IMG/VR virus record: IMGVR_UViG_3300028048_000127
Reading direction: 5' to 3' (one strand)
DNA from: an uncultured virus (IMG/VR IMGVR_UViG_3300028048_000127)
Lineage: Duplodnaviria > Heunggongvirae > Uroviricota > Caudoviricetes
DNA: 64,000 bases
Shown here: positions 10,724 to 56,156 of the stretch, in pieces
Position numbering within the stretch: the first letter of the stretch is position 1
Layout of the letters: each line of letters opens with the position of its first letter
Notes under the pieces: generated by a model
Database searches by the model: none
Seen by the model: the letters and a program-made list of their open reading frames with translations, nothing else
Told to the model about the DNA's origin: nothing
Translations under genes and position numbers: made by a program

Positions 10724-11503
10724 ATGGCATTCGATAATTTAAAAGGTTTTTTAGGAAAAGCGCCATCTGCTGAGCCAAAGGTCGAAGAACCTAAGGCTAT
10801 TTCTCCTGAACACAAAGCAAACTTGGAGAAGATGAGTGAATTCCAAAAAATTCACGAAATTAATCCAGCTAAATCATCTTATCAACTTCCTGGCGATTTT
10901 GAAAAAGATGAAAAAGGCGAAGTTATTAAAACTCTCGATCCAAAAACTGGAACAATGAAAGCGAAACCTCATTTTACTCCATATTCTGAAATTGCTGAAG
11001 ATCCAGAAAAGTTAAAATCGGTTATGGGTAAATATCATCAGCCCGAAGCGATTGAACTTGCTAAGAGTCGTAAAGCATATGCCGAAGAGGAAATGAAACT
11101 TCCGGAAAATATCGGTCCCGTTACGAAACGTGTCTTATCGCATCCAAGTTATGAAGAAATGGACGCTAAAGACAAGAATATGTTTAACACGTTCTATAAA
11201 GAGGCGACAAAACAAAGTTTTATCCCTAATTTTAAAGAAGATGTGCTTGATTATAAGGGTGAAGGCGATATCGGTTTATTCATTAGCGATTGGTCCGATG
11301 CGATTCGCAGTAATCCAAACTTTAAAGATGCGCTTATGCAACATATTCCTGCTGATATGATTTCTAACGTCGCAGAAGAAGATGAACCAGAAGCGTTGGC
11401 TAAATATCTTTATCAAACAAGCGATAAGACATTAGATAAAATTCAAGATACATATTACAAAAACGCATTAAGAGAAATTATCAAACATAAGAAAGGTAAA
11501 TAA
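10724..11503 (+). CDS. Putative capsid-internal protein
   Basis: N-terminus MAFDNLKGFLG resembles the next gene's MAFEGLKKLSG; contains DPKTG. Confidence 0.6.
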   Translation: MAFDNLKGFLGKAPSAEPKVEEPKAISPEHKANLEKMSEFQKIHEINPAKSSYQLPGDFEKDEKGEVIKTLDPKTGTMKAKPHFTPYSEIAEDPEKLKSVMGKYHQPEAIELAKSRKAYAEEEMKLPENIGPVTKRVLSHPSYEEMDAKDKNMFNTFYKEATKQSFIPNFKEDVLDYKGEGDIGLFISDWSDAIRSNPNFKDALMQHIPADMISNVAEEDEPEALAKYLYQTSDKTLDKIQDTYYKNALREIIKHKKGK

Positions 11504-12624
11504 TGGCTTTTGAAGGTTTAAAGAAGTTAAGTGGCGGTGCGGGCGTCATTGTTTCGCCAACAAAAGGTGATGGACGAGGCAATGATTTGCACGACGCTAA
11601 AACTGGAGAATTTGTAGAAAAAGGCGCTACTGGTAGTGTTGGAGAAACAAAACCAGAAGCCCCTATTGAAACAAAATCTCGAGATTTTACTAATGTCTCT
11701 AACTTTTTTAATAAACTCGCCAATGTTTACGAAGCTCCTACGATGAAGAACTTCATTCTCAATCGTCAGAAATTCATAAGTAAAGAGCGTTATATCACGC
11801 CTCAAGAAAAGAAAAACGCAGAATTAATGAGACCTTATGTGAAAGAAATGTTAGATAATTCGAACTTCACAATTTGTATTCAATTCGATCATTTCTTATC
11901 ATTCCTTAAAGACGGTAGATATAAAAACCAATTTGAGACCGGAAAGTCACACGGATTATTATCATCTCACGTTAGGTTTAATTCTTCTAGACAAATGTTT
12001 GGACACGATTTAGATGATATTACATTAGGCAAGAGCCTAGAAAAATACGGATGCTTGCAAGCTAAGAACATTAAAGATTATTTTGAAGAAAAATCCGGTG
12101 CGAAATACGGCGGATACGGAGCATCTGGATATTCGGGCAACGACGGATTGCATTGCGCTATGATATTAAAGAAAGCAAATTTGCGCGATAGAACGACATA
12201 TTGCATGGGCGATTCGCTCAATACCGGAGTATATCCACAAAAATATTCGCAACCGTTCGATGTTTATGTTTCGAATCGTCACGGAAAATTTGACAATTTA
12301 GAAAGTATTACAGCGTTGTTCAAAGACAACCTTCGCACTCCTTGTAGATTAGGTGGTGCATTAGGTTCTGGTTATTTTATTGAAGCACAATACCATGGAG
12401 ATGTTACGGACAAAGATGTTTCTAAATTAGTTATTGGTGGAAGAACAGTTTTTAACAATATGGACATTTCTAGAAAGAAAGAATTGTTAGAAGGATGTAA
12501 TGCTAGAGGTATTAAAGTATTTGTGAACAACGGAAAAGACGACGGCCTCGAAGAGGTCAAACTTGACCAAGACGGCAATATATATTACACTATATATGAA
12601 AGCGAGGTTATCGACGATGATTAA
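11503..12624 (+). CDS. DUF3626-like protein, putative ADP-ribosyltransferase-fold effector
   Basis: GRYKNQFETG.S.G, KYG, RTTYCMGDS and FIEAQYHG motifs as recalled for DUF3626; N-terminal HDAKTGEF. Confidence 0.65.
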   Translation: MAFEGLKKLSGGAGVIVSPTKGDGRGNDLHDAKTGEFVEKGATGSVGETKPEAPIETKSRDFTNVSNFFNKLANVYEAPTMKNFILNRQKFISKERYITPQEKKNAELMRPYVKEMLDNSNFTICIQFDHFLSFLKDGRYKNQFETGKSHGLLSSHVRFNSSRQMFGHDLDDITLGKSLEKYGCLQAKNIKDYFEEKSGAKYGGYGASGYSGNDGLHCAMILKKANLRDRTTYCMGDSLNTGVYPQKYSQPFDVYVSNRHGKFDNLESITALFKDNLRTPCRLGGALGSGYFIEAQYHGDVTDKDVSKLVIGGRTVFNNMDISRKKELLEGCNARGIKVFVNNGKDDGLEEVKLDQDGNIYYTIYESEVIDDD

Positions 12625-12928
12625 AATTATTGGCGGTTATAAAGAAAGCGAAATAATGCCTTTAAACATTATTGTAGAATATAAAGACCTGTATTGGCTT
12701 TTGTATAGAGATCACGATTCTGATTTTATTTACGGCGATTTAGAACCTTATAAATCGTTAGAAGAATTAGAAATTGTTCCAAATGTTGAAGTTGATGAAG
12801 ATACAAAAATGAAAGTATTATCTATGCTTCTTAAAAATAAAGAAAACATCGATAGAAACATTAGAACTTATATTCTAGATGAGACTTACGATCCAATTAC
12901 AAGAGAATGGATAAAACCTGAAAAATAA
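12617..12928 (+). CDS. Small acidic protein, possible immunity partner of the upstream effector
   Basis: Overlaps the end of 11503-12624; GAGG SD. Confidence 0.5.
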   Translation: MIKIIGGYKESEIMPLNIIVEYKDLYWLLYRDHDSDFIYGDLEPYKSLEELEIVPNVEVDEDTKMKVLSMLLKNKENIDRNIRTYILDETYDPITREWIKPEK

Positions 12929-12998
12929 TCAGGTTTTTTTCTTGACTTCTTTCTAATATATGCTATCATATAGACACAAAAAGGAAGGAGTTGCGTTT

Positions 12999-13787
12999 AT
13001 GATCGGGGCAATTATTGGCGATATAGTCGGTTCGGAATATGAATTTCACAATACGAACCGTTACGATTTTAAAATGTTCGGTCCGGAATCGAGATTTACG
13101 GACGATTCGGTTTGTTCTTTAGCAATCGCTTATTCATTACTAATGAACGGAACCAAATCAGAGGATTTTAAAAGAAATTTAGTAGAAATATGTAAGAGGT
13201 ATCCTTATGCCGGATACGGACAAATGTTTTTTGATTGGTTATTTTTTGATGTAGAAAAGAAACCTTATGGTTCTTTTGGAAATGGCGCCGCTATGAGAAT
13301 TAGTGCTATCGGTTGGTATGCTCAAAGTGCCAAAGAAGTCAAAAGATTGGCCATTGATGCTACGCGTATCACACACAACCATAAAGAAGGATTAAAAGGC
13401 GCGGGCGTAATTGCAATGATGATCTACCTTATTAGAAAAGGCAAAAGCAAAGCGTTCTTATGGCAATATGTGTCTAAATATTATGATATGAATCCGATGA
13501 GAGACATATTTAGCAAAACCAAAGAACACGGAATGGAAATTTGCCAAATAACTGTTCCACAAGCCATTCACTGCTTCTTCCAGTCTGATAACTTTGAGGA
13601 TTGTATCAGAAAGGCCGTTTCTTTAGGCGGCGATTCGGATACAATCGCTTGTATCGCTGGGTCTCTTGCCGAAGCGTATTATGGCGTACCGGAATGGATG
13701 GTTACGAAATGTTACGAAAAGTTAACGCCTCAGTTACGCGATATATTAAAAAGTTTCGAACGACAATATTGTGTTGCAAAAAAATAG
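12999..13787 (+). CDS. ADP-ribosylglycohydrolase (ARH/DraG family)
   Basis: GAIIGDIVGS.YEF, FTDDS, SFGNGAAMR, ITHNH, GGDSDTIACIAG motifs; own promoter at 12943-12969. Confidence 0.95.
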   Translation: MIGAIIGDIVGSEYEFHNTNRYDFKMFGPESRFTDDSVCSLAIAYSLLMNGTKSEDFKRNLVEICKRYPYAGYGQMFFDWLFFDVEKKPYGSFGNGAAMRISAIGWYAQSAKEVKRLAIDATRITHNHKEGLKGAGVIAMMIYLIRKGKSKAFLWQYVSKYYDMNPMRDIFSKTKEHGMEICQITVPQAIHCFFQSDNFEDCIRKAVSLGGDSDTIACIAGSLAEAYYGVPEWMVTKCYEKLTPQLRDILKSFERQYCVAKK

Positions 13788-50880: not shown

Positions 50881-51294
50881 ATGAAAGTTAATAATTATGA
50901 ATTAAAAGTAAATAATGTTGGTTCAGGAGAATTATATGCCTTTAGAAACGGCGATAAAATTCTCATTGATGTCCTTGACATTAAAGACAAAAATTCTGTT
51001 CAAGTCGAACAATTAATCAAAGAAACTCTTGAAAAACACCAGATTGAAGTTGTTGATGTGGAAGAAACTATTCTTGAAAAGTCAGATTTGACCGATCGTA
51101 AATCCGATTTGTCTTTAGTTAGACATTCCATGAGAAAAATTCTCAAAAATTTCGGAAGCACAAAAGTTTCTTTAGACGAAAAGAAAGAATTATTAGAAGT
51201 GTATGAAACAATGTGCAAAGCATCTAGTGTTATTACAAAGGCTTGTACTGTTGAATTAGCATACGATAGATTTGAAAAAGAAATTGATGAATAG
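50881..51294 (+). CDS. Hypothetical protein
   Basis: Own promoter and AAAGGAG SD. Confidence 0.75.
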   Translation: MKVNNYELKVNNVGSGELYAFRNGDKILIDVLDIKDKNSVQVEQLIKETLEKHQIEVVDVEETILEKSDLTDRKSDLSLVRHSMRKILKNFGSTKVSLDEKKELLEVYETMCKASSVITKACTVELAYDRFEKEIDE

Positions 51295-52015
51295 ATATAC
51301 CGATTTAGAAATAAAATGGATTAAAGAAAATTTTCCTTGCGATGAATCTCGAAAAGAAACTTATGATAGATTTTGTAAGGAATTTGGGAAAACCCATACA
51401 TACAATAGTTTTTTGTGTGAATCTAAAAAGTTTAAATTAAGAAAACCAGAAGCTAGAAAATGTTATCAAAAAGGTAATCGTACCTGGTCGACTGGCTTAA
51501 GTAAAGAAGAGCATCGATCACATTTTACAAAGGAAAGTTACGAGAGAATGACAAATACAAAAATTCGTAATTTTCCTCATATTCTAAATCGAATTAAATA
51601 CAACGTTCCGGACGGCTACGTTTTAACCGATTTAGGAGATGGCGAAATGATGCAGGTCGAAGAGCCTATTTACAAATGTATGGAATATTTTAAATGTTTA
51701 GGCAAAGGCGATTTAACCAAAGCCGTTTATGAAACATATCGTGTAAAAAGAGAATTAGAAAAGGTAAAAGGTAAACAAATTCGTATTGGTACACAATATA
51801 ATACCAGAGAATATATGAGTTCGATTCGTAAAATAGCGAACTATAAAAGGAAAATTTGCATTGTAGCGAAACGCGATAACGAGGTTCGTGAATTTGCTTC
51901 TATTAGCGAAGCAAGTCGAGAACTAGGCATATCGATCGGTTGCATATCTAGAGTTGTAAATGGGCTTAGAAATCATACTCATCATTATAAATTTTATATT
52001 AAAGAACACGCATAA
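51287..52015 (+). CDS. Protein with C-terminal NUMOD1-like HTH (homing-endonuclease-type DNA-binding module)
   Basis: REFASISEASRELGI..GCISRV..G.R.....YKF; no HNH or GIY-YIG catalytic motif seen. Confidence 0.65.
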   Translation: MNRYTDLEIKWIKENFPCDESRKETYDRFCKEFGKTHTYNSFLCESKKFKLRKPEARKCYQKGNRTWSTGLSKEEHRSHFTKESYERMTNTKIRNFPHILNRIKYNVPDGYVLTDLGDGEMMQVEEPIYKCMEYFKCLGKGDLTKAVYETYRVKRELEKVKGKQIRIGTQYNTREYMSSIRKIANYKRKICIVAKRDNEVREFASISEASRELGISIGCISRVVNGLRNHTHHYKFYIKEHA

Positions 52016-52148: not shown

Positions 52149-52213
52149 TTTCTTTGCTATCTGTACCCCTTTCGTGAAGAAGCGTGTCACAACGATACGC
52201 TTCTTTTATTTAT

Positions 52214-52289
52214 GTTGAGACGAATCTGACAGTTTAGATGATAGTCTGTGAAACTATATTACTCAGTGCAACTCTGAGGTCTCAACCCA
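52214..52289 (+). tRNA. tRNA-His(GTG)
   Basis: 8-bp acceptor including G-1; ATAGT-CTGTGAA-ACTAT; encoded CCA. Confidence 0.85.
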
Positions 52290-52292
52290 AAC

Positions 52293-52367
52293 GGCCCTAT
52301 AGAATATCGGTCAGTTCACGACACTTTCAATGTCGATAGCCCAGTTCGACTCTGGGTAGGGTCACCA
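52293..52367 (+). tRNA. tRNA-Glu(TTC)
   Basis: CGACA-CTTTCAA-TGTCG; TTCGA T-loop; CCA. Confidence 0.9.
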
Positions 52368-52371
52368 AAAT

Positions 52372-52457
52372 GGAGAGTTCGTCAAATTGGTATGACATCT
52401 GTCCTGAAAACAGACGTGGCAAAACACATTAGAGTTCGAGTCTCTAACTCTCCGCCA
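52372..52457 (+). tRNA. tRNA-Ser(TGA) with C33
   Basis: TCTGT-CCTGAAA-ACAGA; long variable arm; G73; CCA. Confidence 0.8.
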
Positions 52458-52462
52458 ATTTT

Positions 52463-52537
52463 ACTCCCGTAGCTCAAAGGTAAGAGCGCTCGTCTTATAA
52501 ACGAGATATAATAGTTCAAGTCTATTCAGGAGTACCA
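52463..52537 (+). tRNA. tRNA-Ile(TAT)
   Basis: CTCGT-CTTATAA-ACGAG; A73; CCA. Confidence 0.85.
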
Positions 52538-52538
52538 T

Positions 52539-52614
52539 GGACCGGTAGTGCAAAGGTTACCATGCCACACTGTCAATGTGGAGATTGCGAGTTCGATTCT
52601 CGTCCGGTCCGCCA
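52539..52614 (+). tRNA. tRNA-Asp(GTC)
   Basis: CCACA-CTGTCAA-TGTGG; G73; CCA. Confidence 0.9.
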
Positions 52615-52620
52615 CGAAAC

Positions 52621-52708
52621 GGAAGGTTACTCAAGGGGTTAAGAGGTTCGTTTGCTAAACGAATAGGTCCGTAGCGATGCGTAGGTTCAAATCCTACACC
52701 TTCCGCCA
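52621..52708 (+). tRNA. tRNA-Ser(GCT)
   Basis: TTCGT-TTGCTAA-ACGAA; long variable arm; CCA. Confidence 0.9.
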
Positions 52709-52712
52709 ATAA

Positions 52713-52790
52713 GGGTCTCTAGCTCAATTTGGTCAGAGCCGTCGGCTGTTAACCGAAAGGTTAGAGGTTCAAGTCCTCTGAGACCCGCCA
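52713..52790 (+). tRNA. tRNA-Asn(GTT)
   Basis: TCGG-CTGTTAA-CCGA; CCA. Confidence 0.9.
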
Positions 52791-52793
52791 TAT

Positions 52794-52864
52794 TGCTGTA
52801 TAGTCTGGGACAAAGTTCGGCTCATACCCGAATCAGTCTGGTTCGATTCCAGATGCGGCAACCA
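52794..52864 (+). tRNA. tRNA-Met(CAT)-like with reduced D-arm
   Basis: TTCGG-CTCATAC-CCGAA; D-arm only GTC-TGG-GAC; CCA. Confidence 0.7.
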
Positions 52865-52869
52865 AATAT

Positions 52870-52954
52870 GGGCAGATAGCCAAGCGGCAACGGCAACTGA
52901 CTGTAAATCAGTCTTCGATCGAATTCGTAGGTTCGAGTCCTACTCTGCCCACCA
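52870..52954 (+). tRNA. tRNA-Tyr(GTA)
   Basis: ACTGA-CTGTAAA-TCAGT; variable arm; CCA. Confidence 0.9.
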
Positions 52955-52955
52955 T

Positions 52956-53029
52956 ATCAGTCTCGTCTAATAGTAGGACTACGGTCTCCAAAACCGTCTA
53001 TCTGGGTGCAATTCCTAGGGCTGGTGCCA
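52956..53029 (+). tRNA. tRNA-Trp(CCA)
   Basis: ACGGT-CTCCAAA-ACCGT; CCA end. Confidence 0.85.
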
Positions 53030-53030
53030 T

Positions 53031-53107
53031 CGGGAAGTAAACGAATTGGTAGAGTTATGAGGCCTTGACCCTCAGTTGTGTAGGTTCGATCCCTACCTTC
53101 CCGTCCA
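53031..53107 (+). tRNA. tRNA-Gln(TTG) with C33
   Basis: TGAGG-CCTTGAC-CCTCA; CCA. Confidence 0.85.
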
Positions 53108-53154
53108 TCAAAAAAATCAGACTTGACAAAAGTTTTATATATGCTATCATATTA

Positions 53155-53778
53155 GTGCAGTCGAAAGATTGCACACAATTTACAACCAGGTGAAGTCATC
53201 TTGATGATGGCCTGGGTCCAACCGAGAATAACTAACTAATCGGGATACTGATTAGAAGGGAAGACCGTTAGGAAACAAAACGGTATTCGAGCAATCGCTT
53301 CGGTTGGTGGCGCATTATGGCAGTCGATGTAAATATTTGTGTGTCAGCAATCTACAAGAGGCTCTGTAGCAATACATCCCACCAAGGCAACTAGATATGA
53401 GAAATCTGGTACACCGGTACTCAAAGAAAGATTGGCGACTTGATGTCTAGCAATAGACTATAACTGATACACAAGAATAAGTAGCCGAACGTCGGACAAA
53501 ATCCCAGTAACGGATTAGGTCAGTGGCTAGACCGTTAGTCTTCTAAACTAAAAGTCGTGGGTTCGAATCCCACATTCGTGTCAATGCTGAACCTCGGTGA
53601 ACATTGGAAGATAATTGAAGTTCTTCCCATCGTCCGTCGCAAGACTATTCTAGAAGCCGAAAGGTAGCTCCTCTCGTCTCAGCCTAGAGTAGATGTGTAT
53701 GAATAACAGATTCTGCTAAGTGATGTAAGACGAAAGTCTGTAAATTGTAAAAGGACCATCAGCAATGATGGTTTTTTT
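53155..53778 (+). ncRNA. Large (~620 nt) structured ncRNA, GOLLD/ROOL class candidate
   Basis: Own promoter (TTGACA 53123, TATCAT 53145); no ORF; 5' ACAATTTACA pairs with 3' TGTAAATTGT; several GAAA/GCAA tetraloop hairpins; terminator at 53750-53778. Confidence 0.75.
53509..53581 (+). tRNA. tRNA-Arg(TCT)-like domain embedded in the large ncRNA
   Basis: D-arm GGTC/GACC; TTAGT-CTTCTAA-ACTAA; GTGGG-TTCGAAT-CCCAC; 6-bp acceptor; no CCA. Confidence 0.75.
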
Positions 53779-53832
53779 CTTAACTTGACTCAATAATATA
53801 TATATGATATTATATAAAATAAGGAGAAAGAT

Positions 53833-54180
53833 ATGATAAAAGAAATTAAAAATTACCAAACCACTTTATTGTTTTTTGCAGATATAATCTATAACTCTGA
53901 CATTTCGGAACAAACCAAAATGCAAGTACTTAATCTATTTAAAAAAACTAATGAATCATTAGAAAATGAACGTCAATTTTACTTAGCGGCTCGTAAATGC
54001 AAAAACTTAATCGAACGTAACGGTAATAAAATAATTATTACGATACCAGACGTTAAGAAACGCAATATTAATGTTCACACCGTTGCGGCATACGAATTCG
54101 CACAAGGGGTTGAGAAAAGATACAAAACTGTTGTAAAAAAAAGCAAAAAACTAAAAGTTGTACCTCTAAAAAGAATTTAA
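53833..54180 (+). CDS. Hypothetical protein
   Basis: Own promoter and AAGGAG SD. Confidence 0.75.
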   Translation: MIKEIKNYQTTLLFFADIIYNSDISEQTKMQVLNLFKKTNESLENERQFYLAARKCKNLIERNGNKIIITIPDVKKRNINVHTVAAYEFAQGVEKRYKTVVKKSKKLKVVPLKRI

Positions 54181-54192
54181 TATAATATATTT

Positions 54193-54340
54193 AATCTAGA
54201 AATTTGAAGAACAGCACTAGGCCAAGGGGTTATTGGTGTGAATTCACTAGATTGCAAAATAAGACTAGAGATGAAACTGCGGTAAAATCTAGTCTAAGTT
54301 ATCCTGTCCCTAGATGTGCTTCGGCCTCTAGGGCTTTTTT
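54193..54340 (+). ncRNA. Putative ~150-nt ncRNA
   Basis: TTGTAC-17-TATAAT promoter; AGACTAGA/TCTAGTCT stem; CCCTAGA/TCTAGGG + T-run terminator. Confidence 0.5.
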
Positions 54341-54786: not shown

Positions 54787-55443
54787 ATGGAAAAAGAATA
54801 TCAAAAAATCGGAAATGTATTTAAGTTTGATGAAAAATTCAGAACTATCGTTGGGTTGAATGAACCTTATGAAACTTTAAAGAATATTATTTGGCAAGGC
54901 ACTGAAAAGATTGACGGCACAAATATTCGTATTCATTGGGACGGTCATAACATTGAGTTCGCTGGCCATACTGACAAAGCACAAATTCCACCAAAACTTC
55001 AAACTTATTTAGAGTCTGTGTTCAAAGTCCCAGAGATGGAATATATTTTTGAACAAGTCTTTGGTGAGTCTGAAGCATATATCTTTGGTGAAGGTTTTGG
55101 TGCTGGAATTCAAAAGTCTGGTGGAGACTATATAGAAAACGGAACTGATGTTTCTTTCATTGTCTTTGATGTTCAAATCGATGGCTGGGATCTTGATAGA
55201 AAAAACACTACCAACGTCGCTACTAAACTTGGTTTACCATCTGTCCCTGTTTGCTTTGAAGGAACTTTAGATGAAGCTAAGGCTTATGTTGCTGAACACC
55301 ACATGTCTACTCTTAATGGCGGAAAGCATGAAATGGAAGGTTTAGTTTTAGTACCAAGAGACATCCAACTTTATGACAAGAAGCATAAACTCATCAAGTG
55401 CAAATGCAAATACAGAGATATGGTTAGAGCAGGATTGGTATGA
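54787..55443 (+). CDS. RNA ligase (Rnl2-like nucleotidyltransferase)
   Basis: EKIDGTN motif I, IFGEGFG, FIVFDV, EGLVL, K.K. Confidence 0.85.
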   Translation: MEKEYQKIGNVFKFDEKFRTIVGLNEPYETLKNIIWQGTEKIDGTNIRIHWDGHNIEFAGHTDKAQIPPKLQTYLESVFKVPEMEYIFEQVFGESEAYIFGEGFGAGIQKSGGDYIENGTDVSFIVFDVQIDGWDLDRKNTTNVATKLGLPSVPVCFEGTLDEAKAYVAEHHMSTLNGGKHEMEGLVLVPRDIQLYDKKHKLIKCKCKYRDMVRAGLV

Positions 55444-56156
55444 GAAATTACAACGTCTATTTATCACTAATGGAAAAGTCTCTTGATGAGAAACTTTTCT
55501 TTACAAAGGAACTCAACCTTAGTAAGTTCAAACGCATCATTGATTTCGGTTGCGGAAAGGGCGATATTTTAAAAGCCGTTTCTCAACAAACTAATGCAAA
55601 ACTTATCGGTATAGATCACGACAAAACGATGCGAGACATAGCGCAACTTAACGTACCGAACGCGACGTTTCATGACGAACTGAAGCGCGATATGATAAAA
55701 CGCGACACTTTGATCATTTTCTCTTCGGTTCTTCATGAAGTCGAAGATTACTGGTTTAAATTGAAACATATCGTAGAAAAAACTGGCGCAACGTTAGCGA
55801 TCCGCGACATGAGGTTTTCTGCACATATTATGAAGATTTCTAGGCAGAATTTAGCGAAACTAATAAAGCATGCAAATCCCCAACATTTATCGGAATTCAC
55901 CGCAAAATACGGATTATTTACTGATAAGGATATGTATCATTTCTTACTTAAATATTCATATGTGGACAACTGGGAACTAGAGTTAGAAGAAGATTACTTT
56001 GGCTTTAATTATCAAAGTTTGCTATCATTAGGTAAGGTTATTTATCAAAAGAATTACACATTAAAATATAAGAAAGAACGCGTAAAGGAAGACTTCGATA
56101 TTAACTTAACAAAACCAACACACACTATGTTAATTATTAAGGTGAAAGACAAATGA
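55440..56156 (+). CDS. Class I SAM-dependent methyltransferase
   Basis: IIDFGCGKG, LIGID, FSSVLHE. Confidence 0.85.
   Translation: MRNYNVYLSLMEKSLDEKLFFTKELNLSKFKRIIDFGCGKGDILKAVSQQTNAKLIGIDHDKTMRDIAQLNVPNATFHDELKRDMIKRDTLIIFSSVLHEVEDYWFKLKHIVEKTGATLAIRDMRFSAHIMKISRQNLAKLIKHANPQHLSEFTAKYGLFTDKDMYHFLLKYSYVDNWELELEEDYFGFNYQSLLSLGKVIYQKNYTLKYKKERVKEDFDINLTKPTHTMLIIKVKDK

Follow-up and report, generated by a model that had tools for sequence, protein, structure and literature searches.

A near-canonical tRNA-Arg(UCU) in the linker of a divergent ROOL RNA from an uncultured bovine-gut phage

The window analysed here is a 64,000-nucleotide (64-kb) stretch of DNA from an uncultured virus of the Caudoviricetes (IMG/VR record IMGVR_UViG_3300028048_000127), a phage contig with major head, portal, large terminase, primase, and helicase genes. 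It carries what is almost certainly a ROOL RNA gene of a bovine-gut (rumen-type) phage, transcribed between a promoter and a terminator of its own as a discrete RNA of about 590-620 nucleotides (nt). Within the linker of this RNA stands a transfer RNA (tRNA) with the anticodon UCU. The features of the locus are the following, with the neighbouring tRNA array given last.

53123..53150, plus strand: sigma-70-type promoter, with the -35 element TTGACA at 53123-53128, a 16-nt spacer, and a TG-extended -10 element TATCAT at 53145-53150
53167..53753, plus strand: full-length ROOL RNA (RF03087), a divergent member of the family, by covariance model
53173..53184, plus strand: 5' strand of the outer closing helix, by model alignment, exact complement, and minimum free energy (MFE) fold
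53489..53596, plus strand: ROOL linker, the terminal loop of a hairpin, at model positions ~341-412, between the AAGUAGCC and GGUGAA motifs
53509..53581, plus strand: embedded tRNA-Arg(UCU), a full cloverleaf with an A1.G72 mismatch, U at -1, and discriminator U followed by CAA
53739..53750, plus strand: 3' strand of the outer closing helix, by model alignment, exact complement, and MFE fold
53749..53778, plus strand: intrinsic terminator, with a 13-bp stem, GCAA loop, and U7 tail, -13.9 kcal/mol
52293..53107, plus strand: array of 10 tRNA genes (Glu, Ser, Ile-UAU, Asp, Ser, Asn, Met, Tyr, Trp, Gln), each with its CCA in the gene sequence

The Rfam ROOL model (RF03087) matches 53167-53753 on the plus strand with 179.1 bits against a gathering threshold of 99.1 (E 1.6e-38 in the 64-kb window), and the alignment runs end to end, from position 1 to position 574 of the 574 in the model. 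A preliminary description of this DNA, made from its letters alone, had proposed a compact GOLLD or ROOL variant, or else a new class of RNA, and had suggested an Rfam search to decide. That search, now run, places the RNA in a known class, ROOL, and neither the GOLLD option nor the new class survives it: GOLLD gives no match at its gathering threshold across the whole window, nor at E <= 1 in a 751-nt search (53100-53850). Nor does the word compact apply, the RNA measuring 587 nt against a family mean of 581 nt (PMC5737381). The conserved ROOL blocks seen in the alignment are AACC..GUGAAG, GGGAUAC, UAUAAC, AAGUAGC, GGUGAA, GAAG..GGU.GCUCC..UCAG, and GAAUA. The covariance model scores nested pairs only, and the three published pseudoknots of the family lie outside its scoring. 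Within these nested pairs, the segment 53175-53184 (ACAATTTACA) is the exact reverse complement of 53739-53748, giving the 10-bp long-range closing helix that had been noticed beforehand; in the ROOL model this helix takes the outermost position, and MFE folding recovers it too.

The promoter and terminator that had been read as stand-alone elements hold up as well. The former agrees with 11 of the 12 consensus positions in addition to the TG of its extended -10, which is the joint top score (11/12) in a 2.5-kb scan; the latter has the stem, loop, and U tract listed above, although a simple terminator scan of the locus does not list the hairpin 53749-53778. Likewise, the abundance of GNRA hairpins is real. 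Nine GNRA-capped stems of at least 3 bp occur in 53155-53778, compared with 1.34 +/- 1.17 (maximum 7) in 500 shuffles and with a mean of 1.26 (maximum 5) in 98 other 624-nt tiles of the window. The 622-nt transcript as a whole folds at -188.1 kcal/mol, with z = -4.55 relative to 20 dinucleotide shuffles.

Evidence for the RNA itself comes from contigs, not reads, of three bovine-gut metatranscriptome runs belonging to three studies, examined together with a DNA run (X2) over 52200-54200; such contigs cannot show RNA ends, levels, strand, or rare forms. Bovine gut or gut metagenome is the label of the runs in which the sequence occurs, and among the bovine-gut RNA runs the RNA is contained in X3, X4, and X6-X8. 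One RNA run (X3) holds a single 572-nt contig equal to 53166-53737 with zero differences, another (X6) has contigs for 53164-53384 and 53355-53756, and the third (X7) for 53165-53383 and 53355-53707. In all three, contigs run across the tRNA and beyond it by far more than 31 nt at either end. The preliminary description had named the lack of any transcript spanning the region as an outcome that would speak against it; RNA contigs from three studies instead span the ROOL and bridge its tRNA. The contigs of the RNA runs do not cover the tRNA array (52200-53137) or 53875-54200, which says nothing on the expression of those genes, and the RNA runs give just one other piece near the locus, a 33-nt match at 53828-53860 that is ~90% alike and then passes into dissimilar sequence. 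In DNA run X2, by contrast, contigs cover 52364-54200. Given that the RNA contigs are confined to the ROOL while this DNA run covers the flanks, the pattern is not accounted for by DNA contamination. Rumen RNA contains a discrete molecule of ROOL size in which the tRNA is still present. Further, the RNA contigs of the three studies start at 53164-53166, 14-16 nt past the -10 element, with no loose end there, and a common start within 3 nt across studies gives a weak hint of the 5' end of the RNA.

Other contigs of X6 and X7 share a 30-32-nt stretch at 53354-53385 exactly or nearly so and then continue into different sequence. They carry a similar UGAGAAA-loop hairpin, which suggests that these samples also express sister ROOL variants of the window lineage. 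A 22-mer shared with these sister contigs has 0 matches in viral contigs.

The loop that bears the tRNA is the sole long unconserved stretch of the ROOL model, reaching from the AAGUAGCC stem to the CUGAA/GGUGAA flank. The tRNA is aligned to unpaired, unconserved columns of this loop, with a 50-nt insert after model position 393, and is held in the linker by tethers of ~20 nt on its 5' side and ~14 nt on its 3' side, the latter including the conserved CUGAA. The linker occupies the same position as in 55 distinct ROOL linkers compared and, at 111 nt (counted after AGTAGC to GGTGAA), is the longest of the 55 (median 73, range 7-111). The cloverleaf that had been proposed within it is recognised by ARAGORN as tRNA-Arg(tct) at 53509-53582 and by the Rfam tRNA model (RF00005) at 53509-53581 with 64.3 bits against a gathering threshold of 29, the second-highest tRNA score in the window. 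Its D, anticodon, and T arms are regular, the anticodon loop has 7 nt, and the tRNA alone folds as a cloverleaf at -18.0 kcal/mol. The only non-standard tRNA pair marked in the Rfam alignment is 1:72 (A.G). This mismatch and the lack of CCA, where the sequence reads U and then CAA, were both correctly described before, and they set the embedded tRNA apart from its neighbours: all 10 array tRNAs encode CCA, so that it is the 1 of 11 without, and all 10 have a standard 1:72 pair, as read by eye from the printed ends.

The anticodon is that of an Arg reader absent from the array and suits the Arg codon used most by the phage. AGA accounts for 326 of the 646 Arg codons (50%) in 66 phage open reading frames (ORFs), and ARAGORN finds no other Arg tRNA in the 64-kb window. 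As to origin, annotated phages yield no close homologue of the tRNA, the best matches (~78-80% over 60-64 nt) being to unrelated tRNAs. A recent copy of an array tRNA was considered and rejected, the embedded tRNA being unlike the array tRNAs by sequence comparison. A20 was also tried as a test of identity for arginyl-tRNA synthetase and proved uninformative, as free-standing phage tRNA-Arg genes vary at that position too.

Known ROOL structures indicate where this tRNA might be found in space. According to PMC12286853 and PMC12990946, cage assembly is known for the env-120, E. faecalis, and L. salivarius ROOLs, which form a hollow homo-hexamer or homo-octamer. The env-120 linker (its nt 414-464) is described in PMC12286853 as disordered, with little or no similarity among homologues, and is placed inside the cage there from the position of its flanks. 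Because the env-120 linker lies inside the cage, the window tRNA would, by homology, face the cage lumen. By the same homology with solved ROOLs, a flat monomer and a hollow homo-oligomeric cage should be expected of the divergent window ROOL.

Close relatives that would reveal how this tRNA has been conserved are wanting. Searches by blastn with the RNA and with the primase-helicase region gave no match in annotated phages, a terminase-based search of viral contigs found no close relative, and blastn of the two ROOL halves against 163 loci returned only two short matches and no close relative. Conservation of the tRNA is therefore judged only from one ~96%-alike DNA variant, that of X2. This variant differs from the window by ~6% in the flanks (17 listed differences, 53807-54093) and in the ROOL 5' half as well; it has no listed difference in 53398-53806, the tRNA included, with 9 further differences unlisted. 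The identical block includes the unconserved tethers, and recent shared descent of the block is possible; the identity over the tRNA would thus be weak evidence of constraint. At 53289-53296, X2 also has ~14 extra letters and three substitutions in a small ROOL hairpin, which is variable in length.

Whether tRNAs enter the linkers of other ROOLs was surveyed across 112 distinct ROOL loci within L001-L163. A linker-blind sample was drawn by scanning viral contigs with a ROOL 3'-domain motif, which yielded at least 97 loci. Among the matches listed, 91 of 97 are ROOLs by a profile built from 15 confirmed ROOLs, and Rfam, applied to 20 of those loci, confirmed 14 and rejected 6, the same 6 that the profile rejects. 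ARAGORN places a tRNA inside the linker in 1 of these 91 ROOLs among the matches listed. This is L009 (ROOL 326.5 bits), whose Phe(GAA)-like linker tRNA scores 53.1 bits and has a weak acceptor stem, with 4-5 of 7 pairs by eye. Targeted scans, which required a T-loop beside the linker flank, so that T-arm persistence partly reflects how the cases were found, recovered 5 ROOLs among 16 loci in viral contigs, 2 among 5 loci in genomes (both uncultured Clostridia metagenome-assembled genomes, MAGs), and 3 among 10 loci in metagenome contigs, all of the last being repeats of viral ones. They contributed one further Rfam tRNA match, L111 (51.0 bits; ROOL 326 bits), which has an 8-nt anticodon loop, and four sequences from five loci (L100, the same contig as L119; L112, L152, and L153; 292-319 bits) that hold only a T-arm and one 6-bp hairpin. 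A second contig (L102/L125) is identical in sequence to L100/L119, and L112 is paired with L148. Two of the four T-arm-only ROOLs come from uncultured Clostridia MAGs. The T-loops of these linkers read TTCGAAT, TTCGACT, or TTCAAGT, and the T-stems change on both sides (TTAGG/CCTAA, ATAGG/CCTAT, TAAGG/CCTTA); the linkers may be either tRNA remnants or carriers of a retained T-arm module. When the clade of these cases is sampled by flank alone (35 loci), a T-arm is present in 4 of the 23 distinct linkers and no tRNA-like element in the other 19. tRNA sequence enters the ROOL linker now and then, in all states of preservation, and the copy in the window, which belongs to a distant lineage, is the best preserved. 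The tRNAs of L009 and L111 occupy the same linker site and likewise stop immediately ahead of the conserved CUGAA; their ROOLs, however, are of a different lineage, and the two tRNAs look unfit for decoding, whereas that of the window is near-canonical.

Beside the RNA rather than within it, a tRNA starts ~0-33 nt (mostly 0-10) past the ROOL 3' end in 26 of 87 distinct near-full-length ROOLs. Since such a tRNA abuts the ROOL 3' end, its cleavage by RNase P would create that end. Sixteen of the 26 abutting tRNAs are tRNA-Arg(CCU), all in one clade, and a family-wide link between ROOL and tRNA-Arg was rejected on that account. ARAGORN reports four-letter anticodons, corresponding to 8-nt loops, at two places in this material: ttct just downstream of ROOL (L100/L102, 1115-1196, oriented) and gtag in the L111 linker.

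The wider setting of the window RNA is typical of ROOL, with the tRNA array ending 60 nt upstream of it; the occurrence of ROOL near tRNA islands is reported in PMC5737381 and in PMC12286853. A sequence search with the array returned generic tRNA matches only and no clue to the host. A weak tRNA-Met (CAU) with a shortened D-arm appears at 52794-52861 on the plus strand (31.4 bits) in a small local Rfam search only; ARAGORN puts the same element at 52786-52864, overlapping the end of tRNA-Asn. Three further groups of ORFs deserve mention.

51272-52015, plus strand: I-HmuI/NUMOD-like DNA-binding ORF of homing-endonuclease type, directly upstream of the tRNA array
54787-56156, plus strand: RNA ligase-like ORF (PF09414, E 1.5e-15; phrog_548) followed directly by an S-adenosylmethionine (SAM)-methyltransferase-like ORF, ~1 kb downstream of ROOL
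11503-13787, plus strand: ADP-ribosylglycohydrolase ORF (PF03747, E 6e-37; phrog_6572) with an adjoining DUF3626 ORF, among structural genes

The ligase-like and methyltransferase-like ORFs could form an RNA repair pair. The former has no sequence match in the PDB and the latter only weak generic matches, and no kinase or phosphatase partner of the ligase-like ORF was found among the window ORFs scanned with Pfam. The ADP-ribosylglycohydrolase ORF may have a counter-defence function.

Given that the embedded tRNA can serve translation only if it is cut out, we tentatively prefer to see the ROOL as a protected precursor or reservoir of tRNA-Arg(UCU). The full-length RNA would accumulate with the tRNA inside, the form in which it is seen in the libraries, and a fraction would then be excised by RNase P on the 5' side and, on the 3' side that lacks CCA, by the endonuclease RNase Z, the cuts falling before cage closure or upon opening. 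CCA would be added after excision, and the product would be the only Arg tRNA of the phage set, reading AGA and with it half of the phage's Arg codons. The precursors that RNase Z cleaves are those without CCA, which inhibits the enzyme, and exonucleolytic trimming of the 3' end would be halted by a long structured trailer. With ~170 nt of structured ROOL lying downstream of the tRNA, the RNase Z route is consequently plausible, and a CCA-less 3' side would make sense. RNase Z cleavage can be followed by CCA addition, so that the lack of an encoded CCA, together with the A1.G72 mismatch, does not exclude function as a tRNA. After the cut the two pieces of the ROOL might remain associated, as the fold does not require the linker; disordered internal loops can be deleted without stopping cage formation, according to a commentary on Ling et al. 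(PMC12515178).

Several observations weigh against such a reservoir. The missing CCA and the A1.G72 mismatch concern features needed for processing and charging, and the tRNA may be decaying. Its release is nowhere seen, the contigs of all three RNA runs holding the uncut form, and the linker tRNA sequences of other ROOLs (L009, L111, and the four T-arm-only cases) are unfit for decoding. Further, no CCA-adding enzyme, RNase, or polynucleotide kinase was found by Pfam in 63 of the 79 window ORFs of at least 100 amino acids plus one shorter ORF, and cage assembly of a ROOL as divergent as this one, at 179 bits, is argued from homology only. The whole explanation, ROOL identity and reservoir mechanism together, stands in our estimate at about an even chance.

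Were the tRNA never released, it would act inside or on the ROOL assembly, either as a multivalent bait or decoy or as a structural module. The targets of a decoy would be host factors binding or cleaving tRNA-Arg, anticodon nucleases for instance, which was the idea of display put forward in the preliminary description. We regard permanent tethering of this kind as rather unlikely. It does accord with the exclusive recovery of uncut RNA in three RNA studies and with the particular parts that the tRNA lacks, as CCA and the 1:72 pair serve only release and charging and the D, anticodon, and T arms are intact. The RNA ligase-like ORF 1 kb downstream (PF09414) would also fit a phage facing tRNA damage. 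However, a closed lumen such as that of env-120 would hardly be reachable by protein nucleases, so that a decoy needs an open or monomeric form, and no anticodon nuclease or defence system was identified. The tRNA-like pieces in related ROOLs cut both ways: they are retained although non-decoding, with T-stems changed on both sides, but they were found with a pattern that requires a T-loop, which makes their persistence partly a matter of bias, and the 19 of 23 linkers without a tRNA-like element in the flank-sampled clade indicate that the family does not need one. Alternatively, a tRNA gene of the neighbouring array may have recombined into a permissive linker, where it is tolerated without function and is starting to decay, a possibility that we think distinctly unlikely. 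The opportunity would be there, as ROOL genes sit within tRNA arrays (with an abutting tRNA in 26 of 87) and the linker is hypervariable in both length (7-111 nt) and sequence and reportedly dispensable for the cage (PMC12515178). The rarity of linker tRNAs (1 of 91 among the matches listed), their range from nearly whole to remnant, and the loss of CCA and of the 1:72 pair in the window copy would all suit a passenger. An intact tRNA body scoring 64.3 bits would not, nor would an anticodon that supplies the Arg reader lacking in the array and fits the commonest Arg codon of the phage. Moreover, the tRNA was not recently copied from the array, and X2 has no listed difference over it against ~6% in the flanks, a contrast tempered by 9 unlisted differences and by the possibility of shared descent.

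These readings all take the RNA to be a ROOL. That it might instead be a new ornate RNA class, a GOLLD relative, or an assembly chimera joining a tRNA to an unrelated RNA is barely conceivable. Its 179 bits do fall well under the 225-340 bits of the other ROOLs compared, and no close sequence relative was found; nevertheless the match is end to end and 80 bits over a curated threshold, all conserved motifs are present, the linker lies at the family position, and GOLLD gives nothing at E <= 1. An assembly chimera is ruled out by junctions common to the RNA contigs of three runs and to DNA, the same junctions recurring in run X2 and a further DNA run (X1) containing all sampled words of the stretch.

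Set beside other ROOLs (RF03087; Weinberg et al. 2017, PMC5737381; Kretsch et al. 2025, PMC12286853), the window RNA agrees in model, motifs, outer helix, and place of the linker, and likewise in its phage location beside a tRNA array and its occurrence as a discrete RNA in libraries. It differs in the whole tRNA held by its linker, in its distant sequence, and in having its own promoter and terminator in place of a 3'-abutting tRNA. The closest parallel for the tRNA is found in GOLLD, in whose linkers tRNAs occur, as in the Mycolicibacterium GOLLD with a tRNA-Phe in J13/15 (PMC12990946, PMC12286853). GOLLD is an unrelated family by sequence and fold, and the window has no match to it, but both are ornate cage RNAs of phages with a tRNA in a disordered, lumen-facing linker (in the window, by homology), and both raise the same question of storage versus release. 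For GOLLD an "inhibited storage" idea has been proposed in PMC12990946. Engineered fusions of ROOL with cargo made by Ling et al. resemble the window RNA in that a tRNA is covalently joined to ROOL; these, however, are man-made, with a tRNA precursor at the 3' end, a reportedly undisturbed octamer, and radial display on the outside (PMC12515178, a commentary), whereas the tRNA of the window occurs naturally, lies within the RNA, and is predicted to point inward. The searchable literature yielded no report of a natural tRNA within a ROOL, though the primary structure papers or the supplement of Weinberg et al. 2017 may mention one. While the ROOL class is thus known, a near-canonical tRNA in a linker that would, by homology, face the lumen appears to be rare and, as far as found, unreported.

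Among bacterial and phage RNAs whose function is unknown, ROOL and GOLLD rank with the largest; the ROOL of L. salivarius reportedly matches 16S rRNA in abundance (cited in PMC12286853). The cage structures of ROOL and GOLLD, solved in 2024-25, have empty lumens. The window ROOL, present full-length in rumen samples, is a ready-made test case for what ROOL cages hold. More broadly, it adds to GOLLD another cage RNA, unrelated to it, with a tRNA in its linker, and this recurrence in two unrelated RNAs argues that the association with tRNA exceeds mere gene neighbourhood. A cage of this RNA might hold six or eight tethered tRNA-Arg(UCU) molecules in its lumen, shielded from tRNA-cleaving defences and processing enzymes, to be freed, or exposed as bait, on opening during infection. 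Such a tRNA vault is an improbable conjecture; if true, it would provide a first concrete function for ROOL and, by analogy, for GOLLD. If the tRNA is instead a tolerated passenger, the linker is still shown to be a permissive insertion site, which would be useful for engineering.

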